DNA from: Nitrosopumilus sp.
Lineage (GTDB): Archaea; Thermoproteota; Nitrososphaeria; Nitrososphaerales; Nitrosopumilaceae
Assembly: GCA_018674605.1 (NCBI GenBank)
Contig: JABGZU010000084.1
Span: 1 to 56,328 of the forward strand
DNA length: 56,328 bases
Direction of reading: 5' to 3'
A model generated the notes under the pieces. That model searched no databases, had not been told where the DNA came from, and saw only the letters and a list, made by a program, of their open reading frames with translations. Positions 7,707 through 50,093 of this stretch are shown piece by piece. The position numbers were made by a program, and so were the translations under genes. Position 1 is the stretch's first letter; every line of letters starts with the position of its first letter.

Positions 7707-8848
7707 TGTTATTTGCACATATTTCAGATACTCATTTAGGATTAGTACAGTATGGTTCCAATGAAAGAGAACAAGATGTGTATGATGTTTTTAATCAAGC
7801 AATAGATATTTCAATTAAGGATCATGTAGATTTTGTAATATTTTCAGGAGATATTTTTCATATGCCAAATCCAAACGGTAGAGCGATAATACAAATGGCA
7901 AATGGGTTAAAACGTTTAAAAGAAAATAATATTGATTCATTTTTTATTTTAGGTGAACATGACATTAGTAGAATTAGAACAACCCCAATTCCATACGTAT
8001 ATCATAATTTAGGATTTTCAAAATACATAGGAAATGGAAAACCAATAGAGTATAAAGGAATCATGTTAGCTGGATTAGATAAAATAAGAAAAACAGAAAT
8101 GACTCAATATGAAGAAATATTTTTAAATTTAGATAAAAGTGTAGAGGAATTTCCAGGACATAAAATATTAGTACTACATCAAGGAATTACAGAATTCAAC
8201 AAATTTGCAGGAGAACTACAATCAACAGATTTACCAAAAAATTTTACATATTATGCAATGGGCCATTTACATGATAAAGACATTAAAGAATTCAATCATC
8301 TTAAAGGTCCAATTGTATACCCAGGATCAATTGAGTTAACAACTAGTGAAGGAATTAAAGATGCCAAAAAAGGGTTTTTTGAAGTAGATATTTCTGGAAA
8401 AGAGGCAATACCAAAATGGATTGAATTAGATACCAGACCTCAATTTTCATTTAACACAAAATACACAGAATTAGAAAAAATAATTGGAGAAATTATAGAA
8501 AAAATTAGTGAACTTACAAAAAAACCAATGATTCAAGTAAAAATAGAAGGAGAGGATATAGAAACAGATCATATTCAGGCACAAATTGCAAGATTAAATT
8601 CATTAGTACTTAGATGTTTTTGGAAAATTACTACAAAGCAAATATCAGATTCATCAGTATTTTTAGATAGACCAAGTGTAATCGAGGATGAAATGTTTAG
8701 ACTTTCAATAAATGCATTAGATTCAGAAAAAGATGCAGATTTTGCAATAAAACAACTCTTACCAACATTATCGACAGACGGAATGAATCAAGCATTAGAA
8801 GTAATTCTAGAAAATTTTGAGAAATTCAAAAAGGAAGAAAAGCAATGA
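7706..8848 (+). CDS. mre11: Mre11 nuclease
   Basis: Metallophosphoesterase motifs SDTHLG, GDIFH, GEHD, LHQ, GHLH, YPGS. Confidence 0.93.
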   Translation: MLFAHISDTHLGLVQYGSNEREQDVYDVFNQAIDISIKDHVDFVIFSGDIFHMPNPNGRAIIQMANGLKRLKENNIDSFFILGEHDISRIRTTPIPYVYHNLGFSKYIGNGKPIEYKGIMLAGLDKIRKTEMTQYEEIFLNLDKSVEEFPGHKILVLHQGITEFNKFAGELQSTDLPKNFTYYAMGHLHDKDIKEFNHLKGPIVYPGSIELTTSEGIKDAKKGFFEVDISGKEAIPKWIELDTRPQFSFNTKYTELEKIIGEIIEKISELTKKPMIQVKIEGEDIETDHIQAQIARLNSLVLRCFWKITTKQISDSSVFLDRPSVIEDEMFRLSINALDSEKDADFAIKQLLPTLSTDGMNQALEVILENFEKFKKEEKQ

Positions 8849-33204: not shown

Positions 33205-34404
33205 ATGACTCAAAAAGGAATTCTTGCATTTTCTGGAGGACTAGATACTTCAGTTGTTGTAAAATATTTACAAGAAGAACACGACATGGATGTAATTACA
33301 GTTACAGTAGATGTAGGTCAAGGAGATGATACTAAAAAAATTGCTGCAAAAGCAAAAACATTAGGAGTGAAAAAACATTACAATATAGATGCAAGAAAAG
33401 AATTTGTTAAAAATTATATTTTTCCAGCAATTAAAGCAAATGCACTTTATCAAAAGAAATATTGTTTAGCAACAGCTCTTGCAAGACCATTAATTGCAGA
33501 AAAAGTATTAGAGATTGCAAAAAAAGAAAAAGTGACATCATTAGCACATGGATGTTCAGGTAAAGGAAATGATCAAGTACGTTTTGATATAACATTACGT
33601 TCAGGTTCTGATCTTCCAATCATAGCACCAATCAGAGATAAAAATTTGGATAGAGATACAGAATTAAAATTTGCACAAAAACATGGAATAGAGATAGATG
33701 CAGTTGCAAAAAGATTCAGTATTGATCAAAATTTATGGGGACGTGCAATTGAAGGAGGGGTTCTAGAAGACCCATACAATGAACCACCAGATGATGCATT
33801 CATTTGGGTAAAAACAAAAGACTTGCCAGATAAACCAACATATTTAGAAATTAAATTTGAAAAAGGAATTCCAGTTGTAGTAGATGGAAAAATAACTGAA
33901 TCACAAAAAATAATTGAATATATCAATAAAAAAGCAGGAGCAGCAGGTGTTGGAATAGTTGATCATATTGAAGATAGAGTTGTAGGAATTAAATCACGAG
34001 AAGTATATGAAAATCCCGCAGCAACTTGTTTAATTGAGGCACATTCAGATTTAGAAAAAATGGTTCATACAAAACATCAAAATAAATTCAAGTCAATAAT
34101 TGATGATGAATGGGCACATTTGGTGTATTCAGGACTTTGGCAAGATCCTCTTAAAGCAGACCTAGACGGATTTATAGAAACATCTCAAAAACAAGTATCA
34201 GGTACAGTGAAATTAAAAATGTACAAAGGAAGTTTGAGAGTAGTAGGTAGAAAATCAAAAAATTCATTGTACAGTCACGATATTGCAACTTATGGAGTAG
34301 AATCCACATTTGATCAAAGATTAGCTAAAGGATTCGTCGAATTATGGGGAATGCAGTCAACGGAAGCTAATAAATTACAAAAGAAATGGAAATCAAAAAC
34401 ATGA
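33205..34404 (+). CDS. argG: Argininosuccinate synthase
   Basis: AFSGGLDTS, HGCSGKGNDQVRF, SIDQNLWG, GIKSREVYE. Confidence 0.97.
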   Translation: MTQKGILAFSGGLDTSVVVKYLQEEHDMDVITVTVDVGQGDDTKKIAAKAKTLGVKKHYNIDARKEFVKNYIFPAIKANALYQKKYCLATALARPLIAEKVLEIAKKEKVTSLAHGCSGKGNDQVRFDITLRSGSDLPIIAPIRDKNLDRDTELKFAQKHGIEIDAVAKRFSIDQNLWGRAIEGGVLEDPYNEPPDDAFIWVKTKDLPDKPTYLEIKFEKGIPVVVDGKITESQKIIEYINKKAGAAGVGIVDHIEDRVVGIKSREVYENPAATCLIEAHSDLEKMVHTKHQNKFKSIIDDEWAHLVYSGLWQDPLKADLDGFIETSQKQVSGTVKLKMYKGSLRVVGRKSKNSLYSHDIATYGVESTFDQRLAKGFVELWGMQSTEANKLQKKWKSKT

Positions 34405-34568
34405 ACTGTCCAGAATGTGACGCAAAACTCAACATCCCAGATGATGCCTCAGTTGGAGAAATAGTCTCCTGTCCTGATTGTGGAGCTGACTTTGAAATTT
34501 CTAAAAAAGAAGGATCAAACATTGAGCTTAAACAAGCAGAAAGTGTAGGCGAAGACTGGGGAGAGTAA
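34401..34568 (+). CDS. lysW: Amino-group carrier protein LysW/ArgW, copy 1 (55 aa, ends EDWGE; start moved to 34401)
   Basis: MNCPECDA...CPDCG...EDWGE; ATGA overlap with argG. Confidence 0.95.
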   Translation: MNCPECDAKLNIPDDASVGEIVSCPDCGADFEISKKEGSNIELKQAESVGEDWGE

Positions 34569-35425
34569 TGTCAAAAATCAGTATTGTTTTTGACCGTTTA
34601 AGAACGGAAGAAAAAATGCTACAAAAGGAAGCTGCCGCATTAGGGCACACAGCAGTAATGTTAGATGCCAAAATTACACAAATCAACACAGATAGTAAGA
34701 AAGAAGATTTGGATTTAGGAGATGTAGTGTTAGAAAGATGTGTAAGTTATTTTAGAGGTTTACATTTTACATCAGCACTAGAATTTTTAGATATTCCAGT
34801 TTTGAATAAATTTGATGTTGCAAGTATTTGTGGAAACAAAATGTTTATGACATTACTTTTAAAGAAAAACAACATACCAACACCAAAAACATATTTTTCA
34901 TTTTCAAGTGAAAGTGCTACAGATAATTTAGAAAAAGTTGGATACCCACTAGTAATCAAACCAGTAATAGGTAGTTGGGGAAGAGGTGTAATGCAGATTG
35001 TAGATAAAGATGCAATGGATGCAATTGTTGAAATTAGAGACATTACAGATAGTCCTCACGATAGAATTTACTATTTACAAAAAGTCGTCAAAAGACCACC
35101 AAGAGATATTAGAATTATTACAATTGGAGATGAACCTATCGCTGCCATGTATAGAAAATCATCAGGTGGTTTTAAAACAAATATCGCATTAGGGGCAGAT
35201 CCAGAGATCTGTGAAATTACAAAAGAAATGGAAGAAATGGCAATAAAAGCATCAAAAGCAATGGGCGGAGGAATATTAGGAATTGATATGATGGAAGATG
35301 AAGAAAGAGGAATAGTGGTTCACGAAGTAAATAATACAGTAGAATTCAAAGGATTAGCAAGGGTTTCACAACGAAATATACCAAAAGAGATGGTAAAATT
35401 CGCCTTAGACTACGTTAGGAAATAA
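34568..35425 (+). CDS. RimK-family LysW ligase, probably ArgX-type (glutamate)
   Basis: ATP-grasp, GSWGRG, FKTNIALG, EVNNTVEFKG; adjacent to argG. Substrate assignment is inference. Confidence 0.85.
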   Translation: MSKISIVFDRLRTEEKMLQKEAAALGHTAVMLDAKITQINTDSKKEDLDLGDVVLERCVSYFRGLHFTSALEFLDIPVLNKFDVASICGNKMFMTLLLKKNNIPTPKTYFSFSSESATDNLEKVGYPLVIKPVIGSWGRGVMQIVDKDAMDAIVEIRDITDSPHDRIYYLQKVVKRPPRDIRIITIGDEPIAAMYRKSSGGFKTNIALGADPEICEITKEMEEMAIKASKAMGGGILGIDMMEDEERGIVVHEVNNTVEFKGLARVSQRNIPKEMVKFALDYVRK

Positions 35426-35453: not shown

Positions 35454-36500
35454 ATGAAAGTTGGAGTTGTAGGAGCATCAGGTTATGTAGGAGGAGAAAC
35501 ACTTCGTCTTCTAGTTAACCACCCAGATGTTGAAATTGGTATGGTAACATCAAGACAGCATGTTGGAGAATATTTGCATAGAGTTCAACCAAGTTTAAAG
35601 GGATTCACAGATCTAACTTTTTCAGAATTAGATTACGATAAACTAACAGATCAATGTGATGTGGTATTTACAGCAGTCCCACACGGTACTGCAACTGAAA
35701 TTGTAAAAGCACTATACGATAGAGGTATCAAAGTTATTGATTTGAGTGCAGATTATAGATTACATCAACAAGATGCATATGACAAATGGTATGGTTGGAA
35801 ACACCCACATCCAGACTACTTACCAAAATCAGTGTTTGGAGTACCAGAACTACATAGAGAAGAAATCAAAAAAGCACAACTAGTTTCATGTCCAGGATGT
35901 ATGGCAGTAACTTCAATGTTAGCATTAGCACCATTAATTAAAAATGACATCATAGATAGAGAACACATTATTGTTGATTCAAAAATTGGTTCTTCAGGAG
36001 CAGGTTCAGGTTCAGGGACAGCACATGCAATGCGTGCAGGAGTAATCAGACCATACAAACCAGCAAAGCACAGACACACAGGTGAAATTGAACAAGAGCT
36101 AAGTGAAATTGCAGGAAATAAAATTCGTGTTTCGATGAGTCCACATGCAGTAGATGTTGTTAGAGGTATTTTGTGTACAAATCATACATTTATGAAAAAA
36201 GATATCAGTGAAAAAGAATTATGGAAAATATATCGTCAAGCTTATGGTGATGAAAAATTTGTTAGATTAATTAGAGATAAAAAAGGATTATACAAATTCC
36301 CAGATCCAAAATTCTTAGTTGGTTCTAACTTTTGTGATATTGGATTTGATTTAGATGAGGATAATAATAGATTAATTGCGTTATCAGCATCAGATAATTT
36401 GATGAAAGGTGCAGCAGGTTCTGCGATTCAAAACATGAATGTTATGTGTGGTTTTGATGAAATGAATGGACTAAGATACACACCATTAACTCCGGTCTAG
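35454..36500 (+). CDS. lysY: [LysW]-aminoadipate/glutamate phosphate reductase (LysY/ArgC)
   Basis: GASGYVG, DLSADYR, CPGC, HRHTGEI, DNLMKGAAG. Confidence 0.93.
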   Translation: MKVGVVGASGYVGGETLRLLVNHPDVEIGMVTSRQHVGEYLHRVQPSLKGFTDLTFSELDYDKLTDQCDVVFTAVPHGTATEIVKALYDRGIKVIDLSADYRLHQQDAYDKWYGWKHPHPDYLPKSVFGVPELHREEIKKAQLVSCPGCMAVTSMLALAPLIKNDIIDREHIIVDSKIGSSGAGSGSGTAHAMRAGVIRPYKPAKHRHTGEIEQELSEIAGNKIRVSMSPHAVDVVRGILCTNHTFMKKDISEKELWKIYRQAYGDEKFVRLIRDKKGLYKFPDPKFLVGSNFCDIGFDLDEDNNRLIALSASDNLMKGAAGSAIQNMNVMCGFDEMNGLRYTPLTPV

Positions 36501-36502
36501 AA

Positions 36503-37306
36503 ATGATTACTATCAAAATTGGCGGAAGTGTAGTAGATGATTTACATCCATCCACAATTAAAGATATTAAAAAAACTGCAGAATCAGAAGGCATTATCAT
36601 AGTTCACGGAGGTGGAAAAGAAGTTACAAAAGTTTGTAAACAATTAGGTAAAGAGCCAAAGTTTGTAACATCTCCAAGTGGAATTAAAAGCAGGTATACA
36701 GATAAAGAAACTGCAGAAATTTTTACAATGGTAATGTCAGGCAGAATAAACAAAACTATTGTTCAAATGTTACAAAAAAATGGAATCAATGCAATTGGAT
36801 TATCAGGAGTAGATGCAAAAATAATAGAAGCAGACAGAAAGAAAAGATTGTTAATTGTAAATGAAAAAGGTCGAAAACAAGCAATTGATGGTGGATATAC
36901 AGGTAAAATTAAAAACGTAAATTCAGAATTTATCAAATCATTACTCAAACAAGGACTGACACCCGTAATTTCACCAATAGCAATTAGTGAAGAATCAGAA
37001 TTTCTTAATGTAGATGGAGATAGAGCTGCAGCGTATGTAGCTGGAAGTGTAGGAAGTGATAAAGTATTATTCATTACAAATGTAGATGGATTATTAATGG
37101 ATGAAAAAGTAGTACCAAAATTAACATTAGCAGAAGCAAAAGAAATTCGACCAAAAATAGGTCCAGGTATGGAAAAAAAGATTTTGGCTTCTACAGAAGC
37201 ACTAGACATGGGAGTCAAACAAGCTTTTATCGCAAATGGTCAAAAAGAAAATCCTATTTCTTCAGCAATCACACATGATAATTGTACGGTGATTGAACAT
37301 GAGTGA
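36503..37306 (+). CDS. lysZ: [LysW]-aminoadipate/glutamate kinase (LysZ/ArgB)
   Basis: KIGGS, VHGGG, SRYTD, NVDGDRAA, GPGMEKK. Confidence 0.93.
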   Translation: MITIKIGGSVVDDLHPSTIKDIKKTAESEGIIIVHGGGKEVTKVCKQLGKEPKFVTSPSGIKSRYTDKETAEIFTMVMSGRINKTIVQMLQKNGINAIGLSGVDAKIIEADRKKRLLIVNEKGRKQAIDGGYTGKIKNVNSEFIKSLLKQGLTPVISPIAISEESEFLNVDGDRAAAYVAGSVGSDKVLFITNVDGLLMDEKVVPKLTLAEAKEIRPKIGPGMEKKILASTEALDMGVKQAFIANGQKENPISSAITHDNCTVIEHE

Positions 37307-38480
37307 AGATCAACATATGGGAAATCTATATCAAAGATTTCCAGTTACAATTGAAAAAGGTGTAGGAGCTCATGTTTGGGATATCAAAGGAAAAGAGTAT
37401 GTAGATTGTATGGGAGGATATGGAGTAGCTCTAGTAGGACATCAAAATCAAAGAGTCAATAATGCAATTAAAGAACAAGTAGACAAAATTATTACGGTTC
37501 ACAGTTCATTGTACAATAAAACAAGAGAAGAGTTTTTAAAAAAATTAATTGAAATAGCACCAGAGGGATTAACACAAGTACATCTTAACAATAGTGGAGC
37601 AGAAGCAATTGAAGCTGCAATGAAATTTGCAAGAAAGTTTACAGGTAAAAAAGGAATGGTTGCAATGAAAGGATCATATCATGGAAAATCATTTGGGGCA
37701 TTATCATTAACATTTAATCCAAAATACAGAAAAGCATTTGCACCATTAGTTGAAAAAGTTTCTTTTGCATCATTTGGAGACATGGATTCACTTCGATCAG
37801 TTATTGATGAGGATACAGCTTTCATAATTTTAGAACCAATTCAAGGTGAAAGTGGAATAATTGTTGCACCAGATGGATTCTTACAAGAAGTTAGAAAACT
37901 ATGTAACGAAAAAGGAATTCTATTAATTTTTGACGAAATACAAGCAGGTTTAGGAAGAACTGGTCGATTATGGGCAGGAGAGCACTGGAATACAGTACCA
38001 GACATTTTGTGTCTTGCAAAAGGAATTGCAGGAGGAGTACCAATGGGTGCAACATTAGTTAGACCAGATATTTTAGCTGCAATAAGTAAAGGAGAACATT
38101 CATCAACATTTGGTGGAAATCCAATATCATGTGCAGCAGGAATTGCAGCTCTAAAATCAATAACAGAAGATGGATTAATTGAAAACTCTAAAAAAATGGG
38201 AGAAATGTTTAGAGAAGGATTAGAAAAATTGAAAGAGAAACATACGATGATTAGAGAGATCAGAGGAAAAGGACTAATGATTGGGATCGAAATGAAATTT
38301 GAAGTAAAAGATATTCTAATGGGATTAATTGAAGAAGGTGTTTTAATGCTATATTCAGGAAGAAATATTCTAAGAATATTACCACCATTAGTAATTAACG
38401 AAGAAGATGTAACAAAAGTTTTACATGCTTTAGATATTGTAATAGGTAGAGAGGAACAAAAAAGAAATGTACAAAGATAA
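37299..38480 (+). CDS. lysJ: [LysW]-semialdehyde aminotransferase (LysJ/ArgD), class III PLP
   Basis: NSGAEAIE, SYHGKS, EPIQGESG, FDEIQAG, AKGIAGG, STFGGNP; ATG at 37299 preferred. Confidence 0.92.
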   Translation: MSEDQHMGNLYQRFPVTIEKGVGAHVWDIKGKEYVDCMGGYGVALVGHQNQRVNNAIKEQVDKIITVHSSLYNKTREEFLKKLIEIAPEGLTQVHLNNSGAEAIEAAMKFARKFTGKKGMVAMKGSYHGKSFGALSLTFNPKYRKAFAPLVEKVSFASFGDMDSLRSVIDEDTAFIILEPIQGESGIIVAPDGFLQEVRKLCNEKGILLIFDEIQAGLGRTGRLWAGEHWNTVPDILCLAKGIAGGVPMGATLVRPDILAAISKGEHSSTFGGNPISCAAGIAALKSITEDGLIENSKKMGEMFREGLEKLKEKHTMIREIRGKGLMIGIEMKFEVKDILMGLIEEGVLMLYSGRNILRILPPLVINEEDVTKVLHALDIVIGREEQKRNVQR

Positions 38481-38886
38481 AACAGACGAGAGAATTATTG
38501 GATATCTAAAAGAAGATGCTAGAGAATCATTTGTAGATATTGGTAAAAAATTAAAGCTTTCAGAATCAGCAGTTAGAAGACGAGTAAAAAATTTAGTAGA
38601 TAGTAAAACAATTAATAAATTTACAATAGAGTTAGGAGAAGAAAATGTCACAAGCGCCATAGTATTGGTTTCAGTAGATTCTGCAACAGACACATCCAAA
38701 GTATCATTAAAACTTGCAAAATTAAATGGCGTAAAAACAGTTTATGAAATTACAGGACAATATGACATCACCACAATAATGAGTGCATCAAGTATTGCAG
38801 AAATTAACAATAGTATTGATGAATTGAGAAAAATTGCAGGTGTTGTAGATACCAATACAGTGATAATTTTAAAGAAAATTATCTAA
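38467..38886 (+). CDS. lysM: Lrp/AsnC-family regulator (LysM-like)
   Basis: HTH (LSESAVRRRV) plus RAM domain (EITGQYD); lies inside the lys/arg cluster. Confidence 0.8.
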   Translation: MYKDKTDERIIGYLKEDARESFVDIGKKLKLSESAVRRRVKNLVDSKTINKFTIELGEENVTSAIVLVSVDSATDTSKVSLKLAKLNGVKTVYEITGQYDITTIMSASSIAEINNSIDELRKIAGVVDTNTVIILKKII

Positions 38887-39003: not shown

Positions 39004-40170
39004 ATGAAAGATCCGAATCACTATGCAAATATCTATAACGCATATGAAAAAAATCCAAAAAAAATCAGAGTGTTAGATAGTACTCTAAGAGAAGGAGAGC
39101 AACATCCAGGAGTTTCATTTACAAATAAACAAAGAATCCAGATTGCATGGATGTTAGATTATTTTGGAGTGGATCAAATCGAGATATCCCCAATTGTATC
39201 AAAGGATCATCAAGAAGCAACTAAAACAATTATCAAACAAGGATTAACAGCAGACATTGTATCTCATGGACGTGCATTAAAAGGAGATATAGATATTTCA
39301 TTAAGCTGTGATGCAAAATGGTGTGCAGCATATTTAGGAATTTCAGATATACATCTAAAAGAAAAATTACGCATTTCAAGAGAAGAAGCTTTGGAAAGAG
39401 CTGTAGGAACAGTAGAGTATGCAAAATCTCATGGATTAAAAATTAGATTTACAGTAGAAGATGGAAGTAGAGCAGAACCAGAATTTCTATTAGAAGTATG
39501 TAAAGCAATTGAAGATGCAGGGGTGGATAGAATTAGTCTTCCAGATACAGTTGGAATTTTACGTCCAATTGGAATGTATAATTTTGTTAAAAAAGTTAGA
39601 GAAGTTGTAGACGTACCATTAGATGCACATGTTCATAACGATATAGGATTTGCAGTGGCAAATGCATTTTCAGCATGTGAGGCAGGAGTTGATCAAATTC
39701 ATACCACTATTGATGGGATAGGTGAAAGAACAGGCATACCTCCACTTGCAGAAGTAGCAGTTGCATTAACTTACTTGTACAAATCACCAAATGACTTTAG
39801 ATTAGATATGTTACTAGATTTATCTAAATTAATTGAAGATTATACAAAAATTGTGCCATACGATTCAAAACCAATTGTTGGATCATCAGCATACAAACAC
39901 AAAGCTGGTACACACCTTGCAGCAATTTTGAAAAATCCAGCTGCCTATGAGCCAATACCACCAAGAGCCGTGGGCAATAGAAGAAGAATAGTATTTGGAG
40001 AATTAGCTGGAAAAACAGGCGCTGCTTATTTGATGTCATTATTAGGATTAAAGAAAGATGAGGCAGGTGCAAAAGCAGTTGCAGCAGGACTAAAAAATCT
40101 AAGAATGGGAGATTTAATAGAAATTCCACTTGAAGACAGACTAGAAAAAAAGATAATTAATGATAAATAA
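39004..40170 (+). CDS. Homocitrate synthase (LeuA family, no regulatory domain)
   Basis: DSTLREGEQ, PDTVG, HVHNDIG, GIGERTG, HKAGTH; lysine-cluster context. Confidence 0.85.
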   Translation: MKDPNHYANIYNAYEKNPKKIRVLDSTLREGEQHPGVSFTNKQRIQIAWMLDYFGVDQIEISPIVSKDHQEATKTIIKQGLTADIVSHGRALKGDIDISLSCDAKWCAAYLGISDIHLKEKLRISREEALERAVGTVEYAKSHGLKIRFTVEDGSRAEPEFLLEVCKAIEDAGVDRISLPDTVGILRPIGMYNFVKKVREVVDVPLDAHVHNDIGFAVANAFSACEAGVDQIHTTIDGIGERTGIPPLAEVAVALTYLYKSPNDFRLDMLLDLSKLIEDYTKIVPYDSKPIVGSSAYKHKAGTHLAAILKNPAAYEPIPPRAVGNRRRIVFGELAGKTGAAYLMSLLGLKKDEAGAKAVAAGLKNLRMGDLIEIPLEDRLEKKIINDK

Positions 40171-40192: not shown

Positions 40193-40360
40193 ATGTCAAA
40201 ATGTGAAGAATGTGATGCTGAGATCTCCATACCAAGTGATGCACTTGAAGGGGAAATTGTAACATGTCCAGAATGTGGCGCAAGTTTTGAATTAGCAAAA
40301 AGTTCAAATGGTTTCGATCTCAAGCCGGCCCAAACGGTTGGTGAGGATTGGGGACAGTGA
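40193..40360 (+). CDS. lysW: LysW-like carrier protein, copy 2 (55 aa, ends EDWGQ), not in ORF track
   Basis: MSKCEECDAEISIPSDALEGEIVTCPECGASFELAKSSNGFDLKPAQTVGEDWGQ*. Confidence 0.93.
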   Translation: MSKCEECDAEISIPSDALEGEIVTCPECGASFELAKSSNGFDLKPAQTVGEDWGQ

Positions 40361-41199
40361 ATCCTGATGTTACAATTCTTTACGATTCCATACGTTGGGA
40401 AGAAAAAGCTCTACTAGAAGCAGGTAAAAAAAAGAACATCAACATACAGATGGTTGATTGTAAAAAACTAGCATTAGATTTAGAAAAAAAACCTGAAGAC
40501 TATGGAGTAGTAATTCAAAGATGTGTCAGTTATTATAGAAATTTACATTCAACTGCAGCTTTAGAAGGGTTAGGAGTTAAAGTAATCAATTGTCTAAACA
40601 CAGGGGTTTTTGCTGGAAATAAATTATTTACACACATGTTATTAAAAAAATTTGGAGTTCCAACACCAGATGCAACAGTTGCATTTTCAAAAGATGCAGC
40701 AATTGAATCATTAGAAACTAATGGATATCCCAAAGTCATCAAACCAACAGTTGGTAGTTGGGGAAGATTAATTTCAAAATTAAATGATAAAGATTCAGCT
40801 GAAGGTATAATTGAAAGTAGAGAAACAATGTATCCAATTTATCAAATTCATTATTTAGAAGAATTTGTAAAAAGACCTCCAAGAGATATTAGAGCAATTA
40901 TGGTAGGAGATAAAATAGTTGCAGCAATTTACAGAAATTCAAAACATTGGAAAACCAATATGGCATTAGGAGGAACTGCAGAACCATGTAAAGTTACACA
41001 AGAAATGGAAGAGATGTGTATCAAAGCAAAAAATGCAGTTCAAGGAGATATTGTAGGAGTAGATTTAATGGAAAGTGAAGAAAAAGGGCTTGTCGTTCAT
41101 GAAGTTAATAATACAACAGAGTACAAAAATACTGTAAGGGTATGTGATGTAGACATACCTTCTCTAATGCTAGATTATGCACTAAAAGTAGATAAATAA
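40357..41199 (+). CDS. lysX: RimK-family LysW ligase, probably LysX (alpha-aminoadipate)
   Basis: GSWGRL, WKTNMALG, EVNNTTEYKN; GTG start at 40357 overlaps the lysW2 stop (GTGA). Confidence 0.88.
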   Translation: MNPDVTILYDSIRWEEKALLEAGKKKNINIQMVDCKKLALDLEKKPEDYGVVIQRCVSYYRNLHSTAALEGLGVKVINCLNTGVFAGNKLFTHMLLKKFGVPTPDATVAFSKDAAIESLETNGYPKVIKPTVGSWGRLISKLNDKDSAEGIIESRETMYPIYQIHYLEEFVKRPPRDIRAIMVGDKIVAAIYRNSKHWKTNMALGGTAEPCKVTQEMEEMCIKAKNAVQGDIVGVDLMESEEKGLVVHEVNNTTEYKNTVRVCDVDIPSLMLDYALKVDK

Positions 41200-41201
41200 A
41201 A

Positions 41202-42329
41202 TTGGACAATAATTTCACAGTAACTTCAAAGTTTGCAACAAAAATGCTAGAAAAAGCACTTCGACTTTACACACCATCTCTTAGTGAAAAACCAATGGCA
41301 GAATTTTTGGCAGATAAATGTGATGATTTAGGATTTGAAGATATACAAATTGATGAAGTAGGAAATGTAATTGCACAAAAAGGAACAGGATCTCCCAGAA
41401 TAATGTTATGTGGACATATGGATGTAGTTCCAGGAAAAGTAAAAGTTAGAAAAGAAGGAGATTCACTTTATGGTCGTGGTGCATCAGATGCAAAAGCACC
41501 ATTAATGGCAATGTTGTTTGCTGCAGCATCAATTAAGAACAATAGTGGAACAGTAATTTTTGTAGGAGCAGTAGATGAAGAAGGGAATGCAATAGGAATT
41601 AAAAATATTGTAAAAAAAGAAATGAATATTGATTATGCAGTATTTGGAGAACCTAGTGGAATTCAAAAAGTTACAATTGCATACAAAGGAAGATTAGCAA
41701 TCAATCTAAGAATCAGTGTTCCAGATAGTTCACATGCAAGTGCTCCATGGTTGTCAAAAAATGCAATTGAAGAATCAATGATATTTGTAAAAGAATTAAA
41801 AGAAAAATTAGAAAAAGGGCAGGATGGAAAAACTAAAGGAATGTTGTTAACTGCAACAATGACCGAAATTAGAGGTGGAACAAGTCACAATGTAACACCA
41901 AAAGAGTGTGAAACTACATTTGATATTAGAATTCCAGTAGATATGAATTGCAAATCAATTGAACAAAAAATTGCAACATTAGTTAAAGAAATTGCTCAAA
42001 ATAGAGAAGTGGAAGCATTTTACTCAATTTTAGATGAAACTGAACCATTTGAAGCACCACATAATTCGGCACTAGTTAGAGCATTCACATTAGGTATAAT
42101 GGAGGTAGAGAAATCCAGACCAACTTTAATTAGAAAAACAGGTACAGGAGACATGAATGTATTAGGTAACCAATGGAAAATTCCAGTTGTAACATACGGT
42201 CCAGGAGATCCACACGAAGCTCACACAATAGATGAAAAAGTTTCAATTGAAGAATATCTAAAAGGTATAGAAATTATCAAGGCAACACTACAGCATTTAA
42301 AAAGACTTCATGATAAAAAATTGCAATAA
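41202..42329 (+). CDS. lysK: [LysW]-lysine/ornithine hydrolase (LysK/ArgE, M20 family)
   Basis: GHMDVVPG, GRGASDAK, VDEEG, GEPS, TGTGDMN, YGPGD...H. Confidence 0.92.
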   Translation: MDNNFTVTSKFATKMLEKALRLYTPSLSEKPMAEFLADKCDDLGFEDIQIDEVGNVIAQKGTGSPRIMLCGHMDVVPGKVKVRKEGDSLYGRGASDAKAPLMAMLFAAASIKNNSGTVIFVGAVDEEGNAIGIKNIVKKEMNIDYAVFGEPSGIQKVTIAYKGRLAINLRISVPDSSHASAPWLSKNAIEESMIFVKELKEKLEKGQDGKTKGMLLTATMTEIRGGTSHNVTPKECETTFDIRIPVDMNCKSIEQKIATLVKEIAQNREVEAFYSILDETEPFEAPHNSALVRAFTLGIMEVEKSRPTLIRKTGTGDMNVLGNQWKIPVVTYGPGDPHEAHTIDEKVSIEEYLKGIEIIKATLQHLKRLHDKKLQ

Positions 42330-49409: not shown

Positions 49410-50093
49410 TCAAATACAAAATGATGATTTAAAATTGTTGTAAAAAATTGCCATGTTTGATTTTACAACAAATATACGTTCATCAATATCAGAACGAATT
49501 TTTTGAGGATCAATGTAAGGTATTTGTTGTAATTTTTCTTCAGTGTTATCAAGCCAAAGATTTATCATTTGTTCATTTACTTCAAGATGAAATTGTAAAC
49601 CAATTGCACTTTTGTATTGAAATGCTTGATTTTGGTAATGTTCAGATGAGACTAGTCTTACAGCACCATCAGGCAAATCAAATGTATCACCATGCCAATG
49701 AAACACAGTGAAAGGGTTTTTGATGCCTGAAAATAATGCAGAATTATTAGAAATTTTCAAATCATCGTAAAATCCAATTTCAGTTTTTGGTCCACGATAT
49801 ACAGATGCTCCAAAAGTTTTAGCAATCAATTGGGAACCCAAACATATTCCCAAAATAGGAATATTTTTTTCAACGCTGTTTCGGATTAAGTTTTGTTCAT
49901 CTAAAAGATAAGGTAAATTATCATTTACACTTTCAGGTGCGCCCAAAATTACAATCAATTCAAAATCTTTTGTTGGAATGGGTTCGTGTTTTGCATTAAT
50001 AGAAGTAATGTTAAATCCATCATTTTTTAAAAGTTCACCCAAATATCCAGATCCTTCAATTCGAGTATTTTGAATTAATAGTACATCAGACAA
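49410..50093 (-). CDS. Stand-alone class I glutamine amidotransferase-like protein
   Basis: GICLGSQ nucleophile, HWHGDTF, QFHLE His-Glu. Confidence 0.9.
   Translation of the reverse strand: MSDVLLIQNTRIEGSGYLGELLKNDGFNITSINAKHEPIPTKDFELIVILGAPESVNDNLPYLLDEQNLIRNSVEKNIPILGICLGSQLIAKTFGASVYRGPKTEIGFYDDLKISNNSALFSGIKNPFTVFHWHGDTFDLPDGAVRLVSSEHYQNQAFQYKSAIGLQFHLEVNEQMINLWLDNTEEKLQQIPYIDPQKIRSDIDERIFVVKSNMAIFYNNFKSSFCI

Follow-up and report, generated by a model that had tools for sequence, protein, structure and literature searches.

The closest described relatives of the system analysed here are the LysW/ArgW pathways of Thermus thermophilus (LysWXZYJK), Sulfolobus (LysW with LysX and ArgX), Thermococcus kodakarensis and Natrinema (ArgW), in which LysK cuts the gamma-glutamyl amide of a carrier protein, freeing lysine or ornithine. 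The accessible part of PMC10433800 describes the substrate amine as joined to the gamma-carboxyl of the carrier's terminal Glu and reports that E54A in the Natrinema carrier abolishes function, which supports the premise of an earlier note on this DNA that LysW chemistry uses that carboxyl group. We examined a 56,328-nucleotide contig of Nitrosopumilus sp. (NCBI GenBank assembly GCA_018674605.1, contig JABGZU010000084.1; the whole stretch is called the window below) that encodes two such carriers, LysW1 and LysW2. The system resembles the known pathway in its zinc-ribbon carriers with an EDWG tail, its LysX/ArgX-type ligases, its shared LysZ, LysY, LysJ and LysK, and its LysM. However, whereas the three solved LysW sequences compared here end EDWGE, LysW2 ends in Gln and lacks the gamma-carboxyl as translated. 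Since the known chemistry needs the gamma-carboxyl of Glu, the carrier as encoded cannot perform it, and either a maturation step exists or the linkage differs. Judged from sequence, the Gln-ended form is a genuine variant of the LysW system, widespread and under selection, and it lies outside the known chemistry.

A comparable arrangement occurs in the Pup/Dop/PafA system, where a small protein is coupled via the gamma-carboxyl of a terminal Glu that is encoded as Gln or Glu depending on the lineage. Species differ in whether their Pup ends GGQ or GGE, both forms occur in some organisms, Gln is invariant among mycobacteria, and Dop is both the deamidase and the releasing enzyme (all from the available part of PMC3511204). 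There is no homology: unlike LysW, Pup is disordered and tags proteins, and PafA and Dop have a glutamine-synthetase-related fold. By analogy, LysW2 likely works like Pup/Dop, with deamidation being predicted for it. The other system to consider is the RimK alpha-L-glutamate ligase, which belongs to the same ATP-grasp subfamily as the window ligases, has the same first-site Arg and sets a precedent for alpha linkage at a protein C-terminus. A metabolic model for Nitrosopumilus maritimus uses standard LysW chemistry to complete both the lysine and arginine pathways, and the available part of that paper leaves the Gln end unmentioned (PMC6038301). The literature searched, which covered few subscription papers and neither supplements nor the primary LysW papers, yielded no description of a Gln-ended LysW or of its deamidation. 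Ammonia-oxidising archaea rank among the most abundant autotrophs of both oceans and soils, and the carrier pathway seems to be the sole way in which they make lysine and arginine. A maturation step, if true, would represent convergence on the Pup/Dop solution and could offer a point of control over two amino acids rich in nitrogen, and alpha linkage, if true, would give amino-group carrier proteins a second mode of attachment.

The carrier in question and its last codon lie as follows:

40193-40360, + strand: lysW2, a 55-aa zinc-ribbon amino-group carrier ending EDWGQ (NF041070, 89.8 bits)
40355-40357, + strand: terminal Gln codon CAG of lysW2, its G shared as the opening base of the likely GTG start of lysX

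Translation of the open reading frames shows that LysW2 has two CxxC pairs and that its gene closes with GAG GAT TGG GGA CAG TGA, i.e., EDWGQ followed by a stop, while LysW1 ends EDWGE, both as the earlier note had stated. LysW2 belongs to the LysW/ArgW family (NF041070, PF21344): it has the zinc ribbon of approximately 55 residues with two CxxC, both carriers exceed the NCBIfam archaeal LysW cut-off of 75 bits (89.8 for LysW2 and 93.8 for LysW1), it aligns over its full length with 3VPB_E (E = 1.9e-10), and it is encoded with LysX/ArgX, LysY, LysZ, LysJ and LysK. Its homologues are named LysW in databases. What the encoded protein lacks is the C-terminal EDWGE, with its reactive Glu, of a canonical LysW.

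The Gln end of LysW2 is real and no sequencing error. Contigs from public runs are identical to the window across position 40355, with 0 differences (among 40 of the 194 variant rows; these are contigs, not raw reads), the matching contigs being record 21 of X3 (40223-40900), from an RNA library, and record 30 of X6 (40240-40372). The terminal codon at related loci, of which the nearest named ones are Nitrosopumilus, is CAG TGA in 78 of 80 and GAG TGA in the other 2. Among the 120 LysW2 homologues listed out of 351 matches, 113 end xDWGQ, 1 ends EDWGE and 6 are extended or chimeric. The earlier note had proposed examining orthologous C-termini, and these show EDWGQ to be conserved; its option of a one-base error is refuted, given the related loci, the matching contigs and a Gln ending in 178 of 180 genomes of the family. 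RNA editing is out as well, since CAG is present in contigs from both DNA and RNA libraries. The same note had argued that Gln is not imposed by the GTGA overlap with lysX, and this holds: GAG TGA sits directly on the lysX start, with the same overlap, in L050, L078, L154 and L147-L149.

Gln-ended carriers are common in the class. A scan for the EDWGQ-stop pattern over 301 of its genomes gave matches in 224; by family these were 178/180 in f1, 39/39 in f3, 5/9 in f2, 1/4 in f5, 0/3 in f4 and 0/1 in f6, and there were none in 64 genomes of other orders. Family f1 is Nitrosopumilaceae, and f3 is probably Nitrososphaeraceae. The f1 tally includes three unpublished genomes (G231, G132 and G283) that enter no other claim, and stands at 175/177 without them. 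The pattern also admits TGG, with at least one false match (G120), and ends were read directly wherever a claim depends on them. In the other orders, lysW was found in 11 of 16 sampled genomes and is E-ended in all 11. Carriers in phylum and sister-class samples are E-ended except for one of two copies in G435 (among the matches listed; 132 phylum matches lie outside). Outside the ammonia oxidisers, Q carriers occur in Caldarchaeum sp. (P0258) and at L260 of G435, the latter in a full arginine-lysine cluster. P0169 and P0271 are a near-identical Q/E pair within one 90% cluster. The terminal residue is always E or Q (495/495 copies in 405 loci, redundant loci included). At 50% identity, 116 of 150 representatives end D/E-W-G-x, 99 with E and 17 with Q, and the other 34 comprise truncated or fused sequences and F/Y variants (EDFGE and EDFGQ, for example). 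Endings of the type EDFGE, EDFGQ or EDYGE are found in P0160, P0200, P0201, P0248, P0253 and P0269. Nine other matches to the Q pattern (L235-L240 and L242-L244) were inspected and are not lysW.

The history of the terminal residue was followed on a tree of LysX plus LysK from 41 loci, rooted on f4, with E/Q changes counted by hand. LysW2 underwent at least 6 such changes, a single early gain and several separate gains being equally short, and the LysW1 ending switched separately in f3. Both Gln codons, CAA and CAG, and all three stop codons occur among the carriers. Over 105 f1 sequences of LysW2, 1 Gln/Glu change is seen versus approximately 21 C-to-G events expected (0.346 x 61.8) from four-fold sites of lysX, and over 83 f3 sequences of LysW1 there is 1 change versus approximately 9 expected, with 7 third-position changes; the neutral rates are rough, being estimated from 60 and 36 sites with a stationary model. 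Because both codons and all three stops are used and a single switch stands against approximately 21 neutral ones, Gln is, on these comparative grounds, held by selection at the protein level. The overlap or a codon constraint is out as the cause, as CAA or CAG precedes TAA, TAG or TGA both with and without overlap.

Five relatives assembled as single contigs carry only Gln-ended carriers. Three of them (G120, G159 and G171, 99% complete) have a Q-ended gene as their sole lysW, with argG adjoining argX and both ligases retained, and G184 and G244 have two lysW genes each, both Q-ended; G235, G208 and G153 are likewise Q-only according to a family search and direct reading. All five single-contig genomes retain argX, lysX, lysY, lysZ, lysJ and lysK. 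ArgJ was found in none of the five (N-acetylglutamate synthase was not searched) and neither was DapB; a conserved lysA-like decarboxylase, below cut-off in all five, gives no diaminopimelate route because DapB is missing. Since these genomes have the complete pathway but neither ArgJ nor DapB, the Gln carrier is no general decoy, and the earlier note's option of a non-loadable decoy or regulator fails as a general explanation. As far as gene content can tell, a Gln-ended gene can supply a working carrier for either ligase. The Gln ending is not confined to the lysine-side copy and is also found on the arginine-side copy, on both copies or on a sole carrier. Giving the arginine side before the lysine side, the combinations are E+Q in the window, Q+E in 7/7 g33 genomes, Q+Q in g31, and E+E in g29, g35, three f5 genomes, f4, f6 and G131; a sole Q carrier occurs in g24 and a sole E carrier with both ligases in G236. 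At L186:4100-4315 of G236, lysW2 is absent, GC-rich tandem repeats lie in the gap, and the remaining Glu carrier stands with both ligases.

We assign a probability of roughly 0.5 to LysW2 being a pro-carrier that is deamidated once to Glu and then follows ordinary gamma-linked chemistry. The protein translated with terminal Gln would be an inactive precursor, its side-chain amide would be hydrolysed once, probably by LysK, and the resulting carrier would then cycle through the ordinary gamma-glutamyl route. Terminal Gln would offer LysK the same amide as its usual substrate, with ammonia as the leaving group, and a slow side activity would be sufficient because the carrier is recycled. The indirect evidence favours deamidation over another linkage. 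All E/Q combinations occur with the same enzyme set, which is simplest if the mature product is identical, and the Gln-only genomes need a usable carrier, which supports conversion. Likewise, the two-letter alphabet, the free exchange of E and Q, the unchanged ligases and the repeated origins are most simply explained by a Gln-to-Glu conversion by an activity of the pathway, and the separate Q origins outside the ammonia oxidisers suggest that the pathway itself has such an ability in latent form. LysK, our tentative choice of enzyme, takes most of the probability given above; another amidase, such as the stand-alone glutamine amidotransferase-like protein listed below, would be a much less likely agent, and spontaneous loss of the amide hardly enters the estimate.

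Several points weigh against the pro-carrier. Purifying selection acts on Gln, though the encoded residue would be irrelevant after the first cycle; the pro-carrier model gives no reason for this selection, and in Pup the same pattern is likewise unexplained. An M20 hydrolase normally holds the departing amino acid by its carboxylate, a group that ammonia does not have. Residues S95, S228-H229-N230, T232 and H338 near the LysK active site are fixed in almost all of 141 f1, f2, f3 and f5 LysKs and rare in outgroups. The LysK of L260, an independent Q lineage, has none of S95, S228-H229-N230 and H338, so the clade residues do not mark a deamidase by convergence; a changed linkage could also account for them.

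As annotated, the cluster in the window is a complete carrier-based lysine/arginine set, in the order argG, lysW1, argX, lysY, lysZ, lysJ, lysM, homocitrate-synthase-like gene, lysW2, lysX and lysK. Its members other than lysW2, and one gene farther downstream, are:

33205-34404, + strand: argG, argininosuccinate synthase (profile match)
34386-34568, + strand: lysW1/argW, carrier ending EDWGE (profile match and translation)
34568-35425, + strand: ArgX-type ATP-grasp ligase (ligase 1), with G-L at the specificity positions; probably loads glutamate
35454-36500, + strand: lysY, part of the single set common to both carriers
36503-37306, + strand: lysZ, part of the same set
37293-38480, + strand: lysJ, part of the same set
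38467-38886, + strand: lysM, Lrp-type regulator (NF040947, 178.3 bits versus a cut-off of 180)
39004-40170, + strand: homocitrate/isopropylmalate synthase family gene (TIGR02146, 371.8 bits, under the cut-off of 413.55); probably homocitrate synthase from its context
40357-41199, + strand: LysX-type ATP-grasp ligase (ligase 2), with N-T and I at the specificity positions; probably loads aminoadipate
41202-42329, + strand: lysK, M20 [LysW]-lysine/ornithine hydrolase, present once in the assembly; leading candidate for the putative deamidation
49410-50093, - strand: stand-alone class I glutamine amidotransferase-like protein; putative secondary candidate amidase

No further lysW, ligase or lysK was found in the window's own assembly, which is 62% complete. 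The specificity motif is given as N-S/T in LysX and G-F in ArgX in the available part of PMC12998189, and by this motif ligase 1 would be ArgX-like (G-L) and ligase 2 LysX-like (N-T), with their substrates inferred accordingly from these positions.

Both ligases have the GSWGR loop and the first-site Arg (R179) of LysX/ArgX. Their motifs RCVS, GSWGR, TN and EVN..E(F/Y)K are LysX-type and, unlike E. coli RimK with RIGT, GTQGI and EVNASPG, they have RCVS, GSWGR and EVNNTTE(F/Y)K. Ligases partnered with Gln carriers retain the columns that are invariant in never-Q ligases, and the LysX proteins of three Glu revertants share 96-97% identity with a Gln-partnered LysX. Within a clade, no column that is well conserved in Gln-partnered LysX sets Gln apart from Glu partners. 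No convergent change in ArgX tracks Q, the changes common to Q-only g12 and f3 ArgX being found in Glu-partnered ArgX too. No co-varying ligase residue is convincing, and the top-ranked columns reflect clade sampling. A third, RimK-like ligase was not found above cut-off in 5 genomes, and in L260 the Q carrier and argX have no inserted gene between them. GSHGR replaces GSWGR in the ArgX-type ligases of L260 (8568-9434) and L351, one Gln- and one Glu-partnered.

The metal-binding motifs of LysK are intact, and LysK-family M20 hydrolases are present in 19/19 genomes tested. The five deamidase families tried, a set without the glutaminase, amidase, nitrilase or asparaginase families, gave no universal dedicated deamidase: in Q-bearing genomes, Pup ligase/Dop (PF03136) was found in 0/5, with a positive control in Corynebacterium, CheD in 2/5, and transglutaminase, GCS2 and gamma-glutamyl transpeptidase in 1/5 each. 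The stand-alone amidotransferase-like protein at 49410-50093, in which Cys and His-x-Glu are intact, is a minor candidate amidase for LysW. It has strong matches in 25/25 f1, f2, f3 and f5 genomes and is also kept in Glu-only genomes; matches are weak or lacking in 3 f4/f6 genomes, and Q-carrying G435 has none. The gene lies directly upstream of an ADP-forming acyl-CoA synthetase gene and an enoyl-CoA hydratase-like gene, which we take to be genes of the 3-hydroxypropionate/4-hydroxybutyrate cycle.

Were the ligase to activate the terminal alpha-carboxyl instead, Gln would stay through every cycle and block gamma ligation, and LysK would act as a carboxypeptidase. This would explain directly the lasting selection on Gln in both LysW2 and LysW1 that counts against a pro-carrier. 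RimK, of the same family, forms alpha links via the same conserved first-site Arg (available part of PMC10375531), the LysK of the Q-bearing clade has its fixed clade-specific residues near the active site, and an alpha linkage that was clade-wide would tolerate Glu and Gln alike without ligase co-variation. We nevertheless consider it unlikely: the carrier-binding motifs of the ligases are LysX-type rather than RimK-type, the carriers end in E or Q and in nothing else, an arm shortened by two bonds would have to suit four downstream enzymes, and Q also arose where LysK lacks the clade-specific residues. Slightly less likely again is the fuller picture in which most ammonia-oxidising archaea have a permanently Gln-ended, alpha-loaded carrier, with LysK as a carboxypeptidase and virus-like elements bringing a Gln carrier of their own. 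A transamidation, in which LysX or ArgX with ADP and phosphate cuts the Gln amide to a gamma-glutamyl phosphate that aminoadipate or glutamate then attacks, would dispense with the deamidation step. It requires no new gene and fits the interchange of E and Q and their independent origins; carboxylate-amine ligases proceed via an acyl phosphate, and that step is reversible. However, no ligase residue tracks Q, the activity would be needed in both paralogues and across several lineages, and selection for Q is explained no better, so that we regard this route as improbable.

The Glu carrier, LysW1, might instead carry both pathways while LysW2 is non-loadable and damps the enzymes by binding them. 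A Glu-ended carrier is indeed present in the window, G236 serves both ligases with one Glu carrier, and orphan Gln-ended copies lie off-pathway (L171, L257, L276 and L284). On this account, however, the Gln-only genomes would be double auxotrophs with an intact but useless pathway, making it very improbable. We give scarcely any weight to Glu being supplied at translation (misincorporation from Glu-tRNA(Gln), RNA editing, or read-through with trimming) or to a base error. Archaea make Gln-tRNA indirectly through Glu-tRNA(Gln), which speaks for misincorporation, yet little active carrier would be expected from it and Glu codons would be favoured; programmed read-through is opposed by the occurrence of all three stops and of unrelated downstream sequences, and editing or error by the agreement of contigs and loci described above. 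Explanations beyond those named are left with very little of the probability.

Some Gln-ended carriers stand apart from the pathway. Two metagenome contigs, L257 (gene at 8001-8168) and L258, of 66.6 and 57.6 kb, carry a Gln-ended LysW, P0177, as an orphan: pathway genes are absent within 8 kb of it, and its surroundings hold short ORFs together with genes for an RNA-binding protein (phrog_850), for a collagen-like protein and for sugar transfer. From this content the contigs look virus-like; no hallmark viral gene was shown on them, and no relatives of the divergent Q carriers were confirmed in viral_contigs. More Gln-ended lysW copies distant from any ligase are found at L171, L173, L276, L284, L323 and L326, and in G208 and G153 argG abuts argX while the second carrier is located elsewhere.
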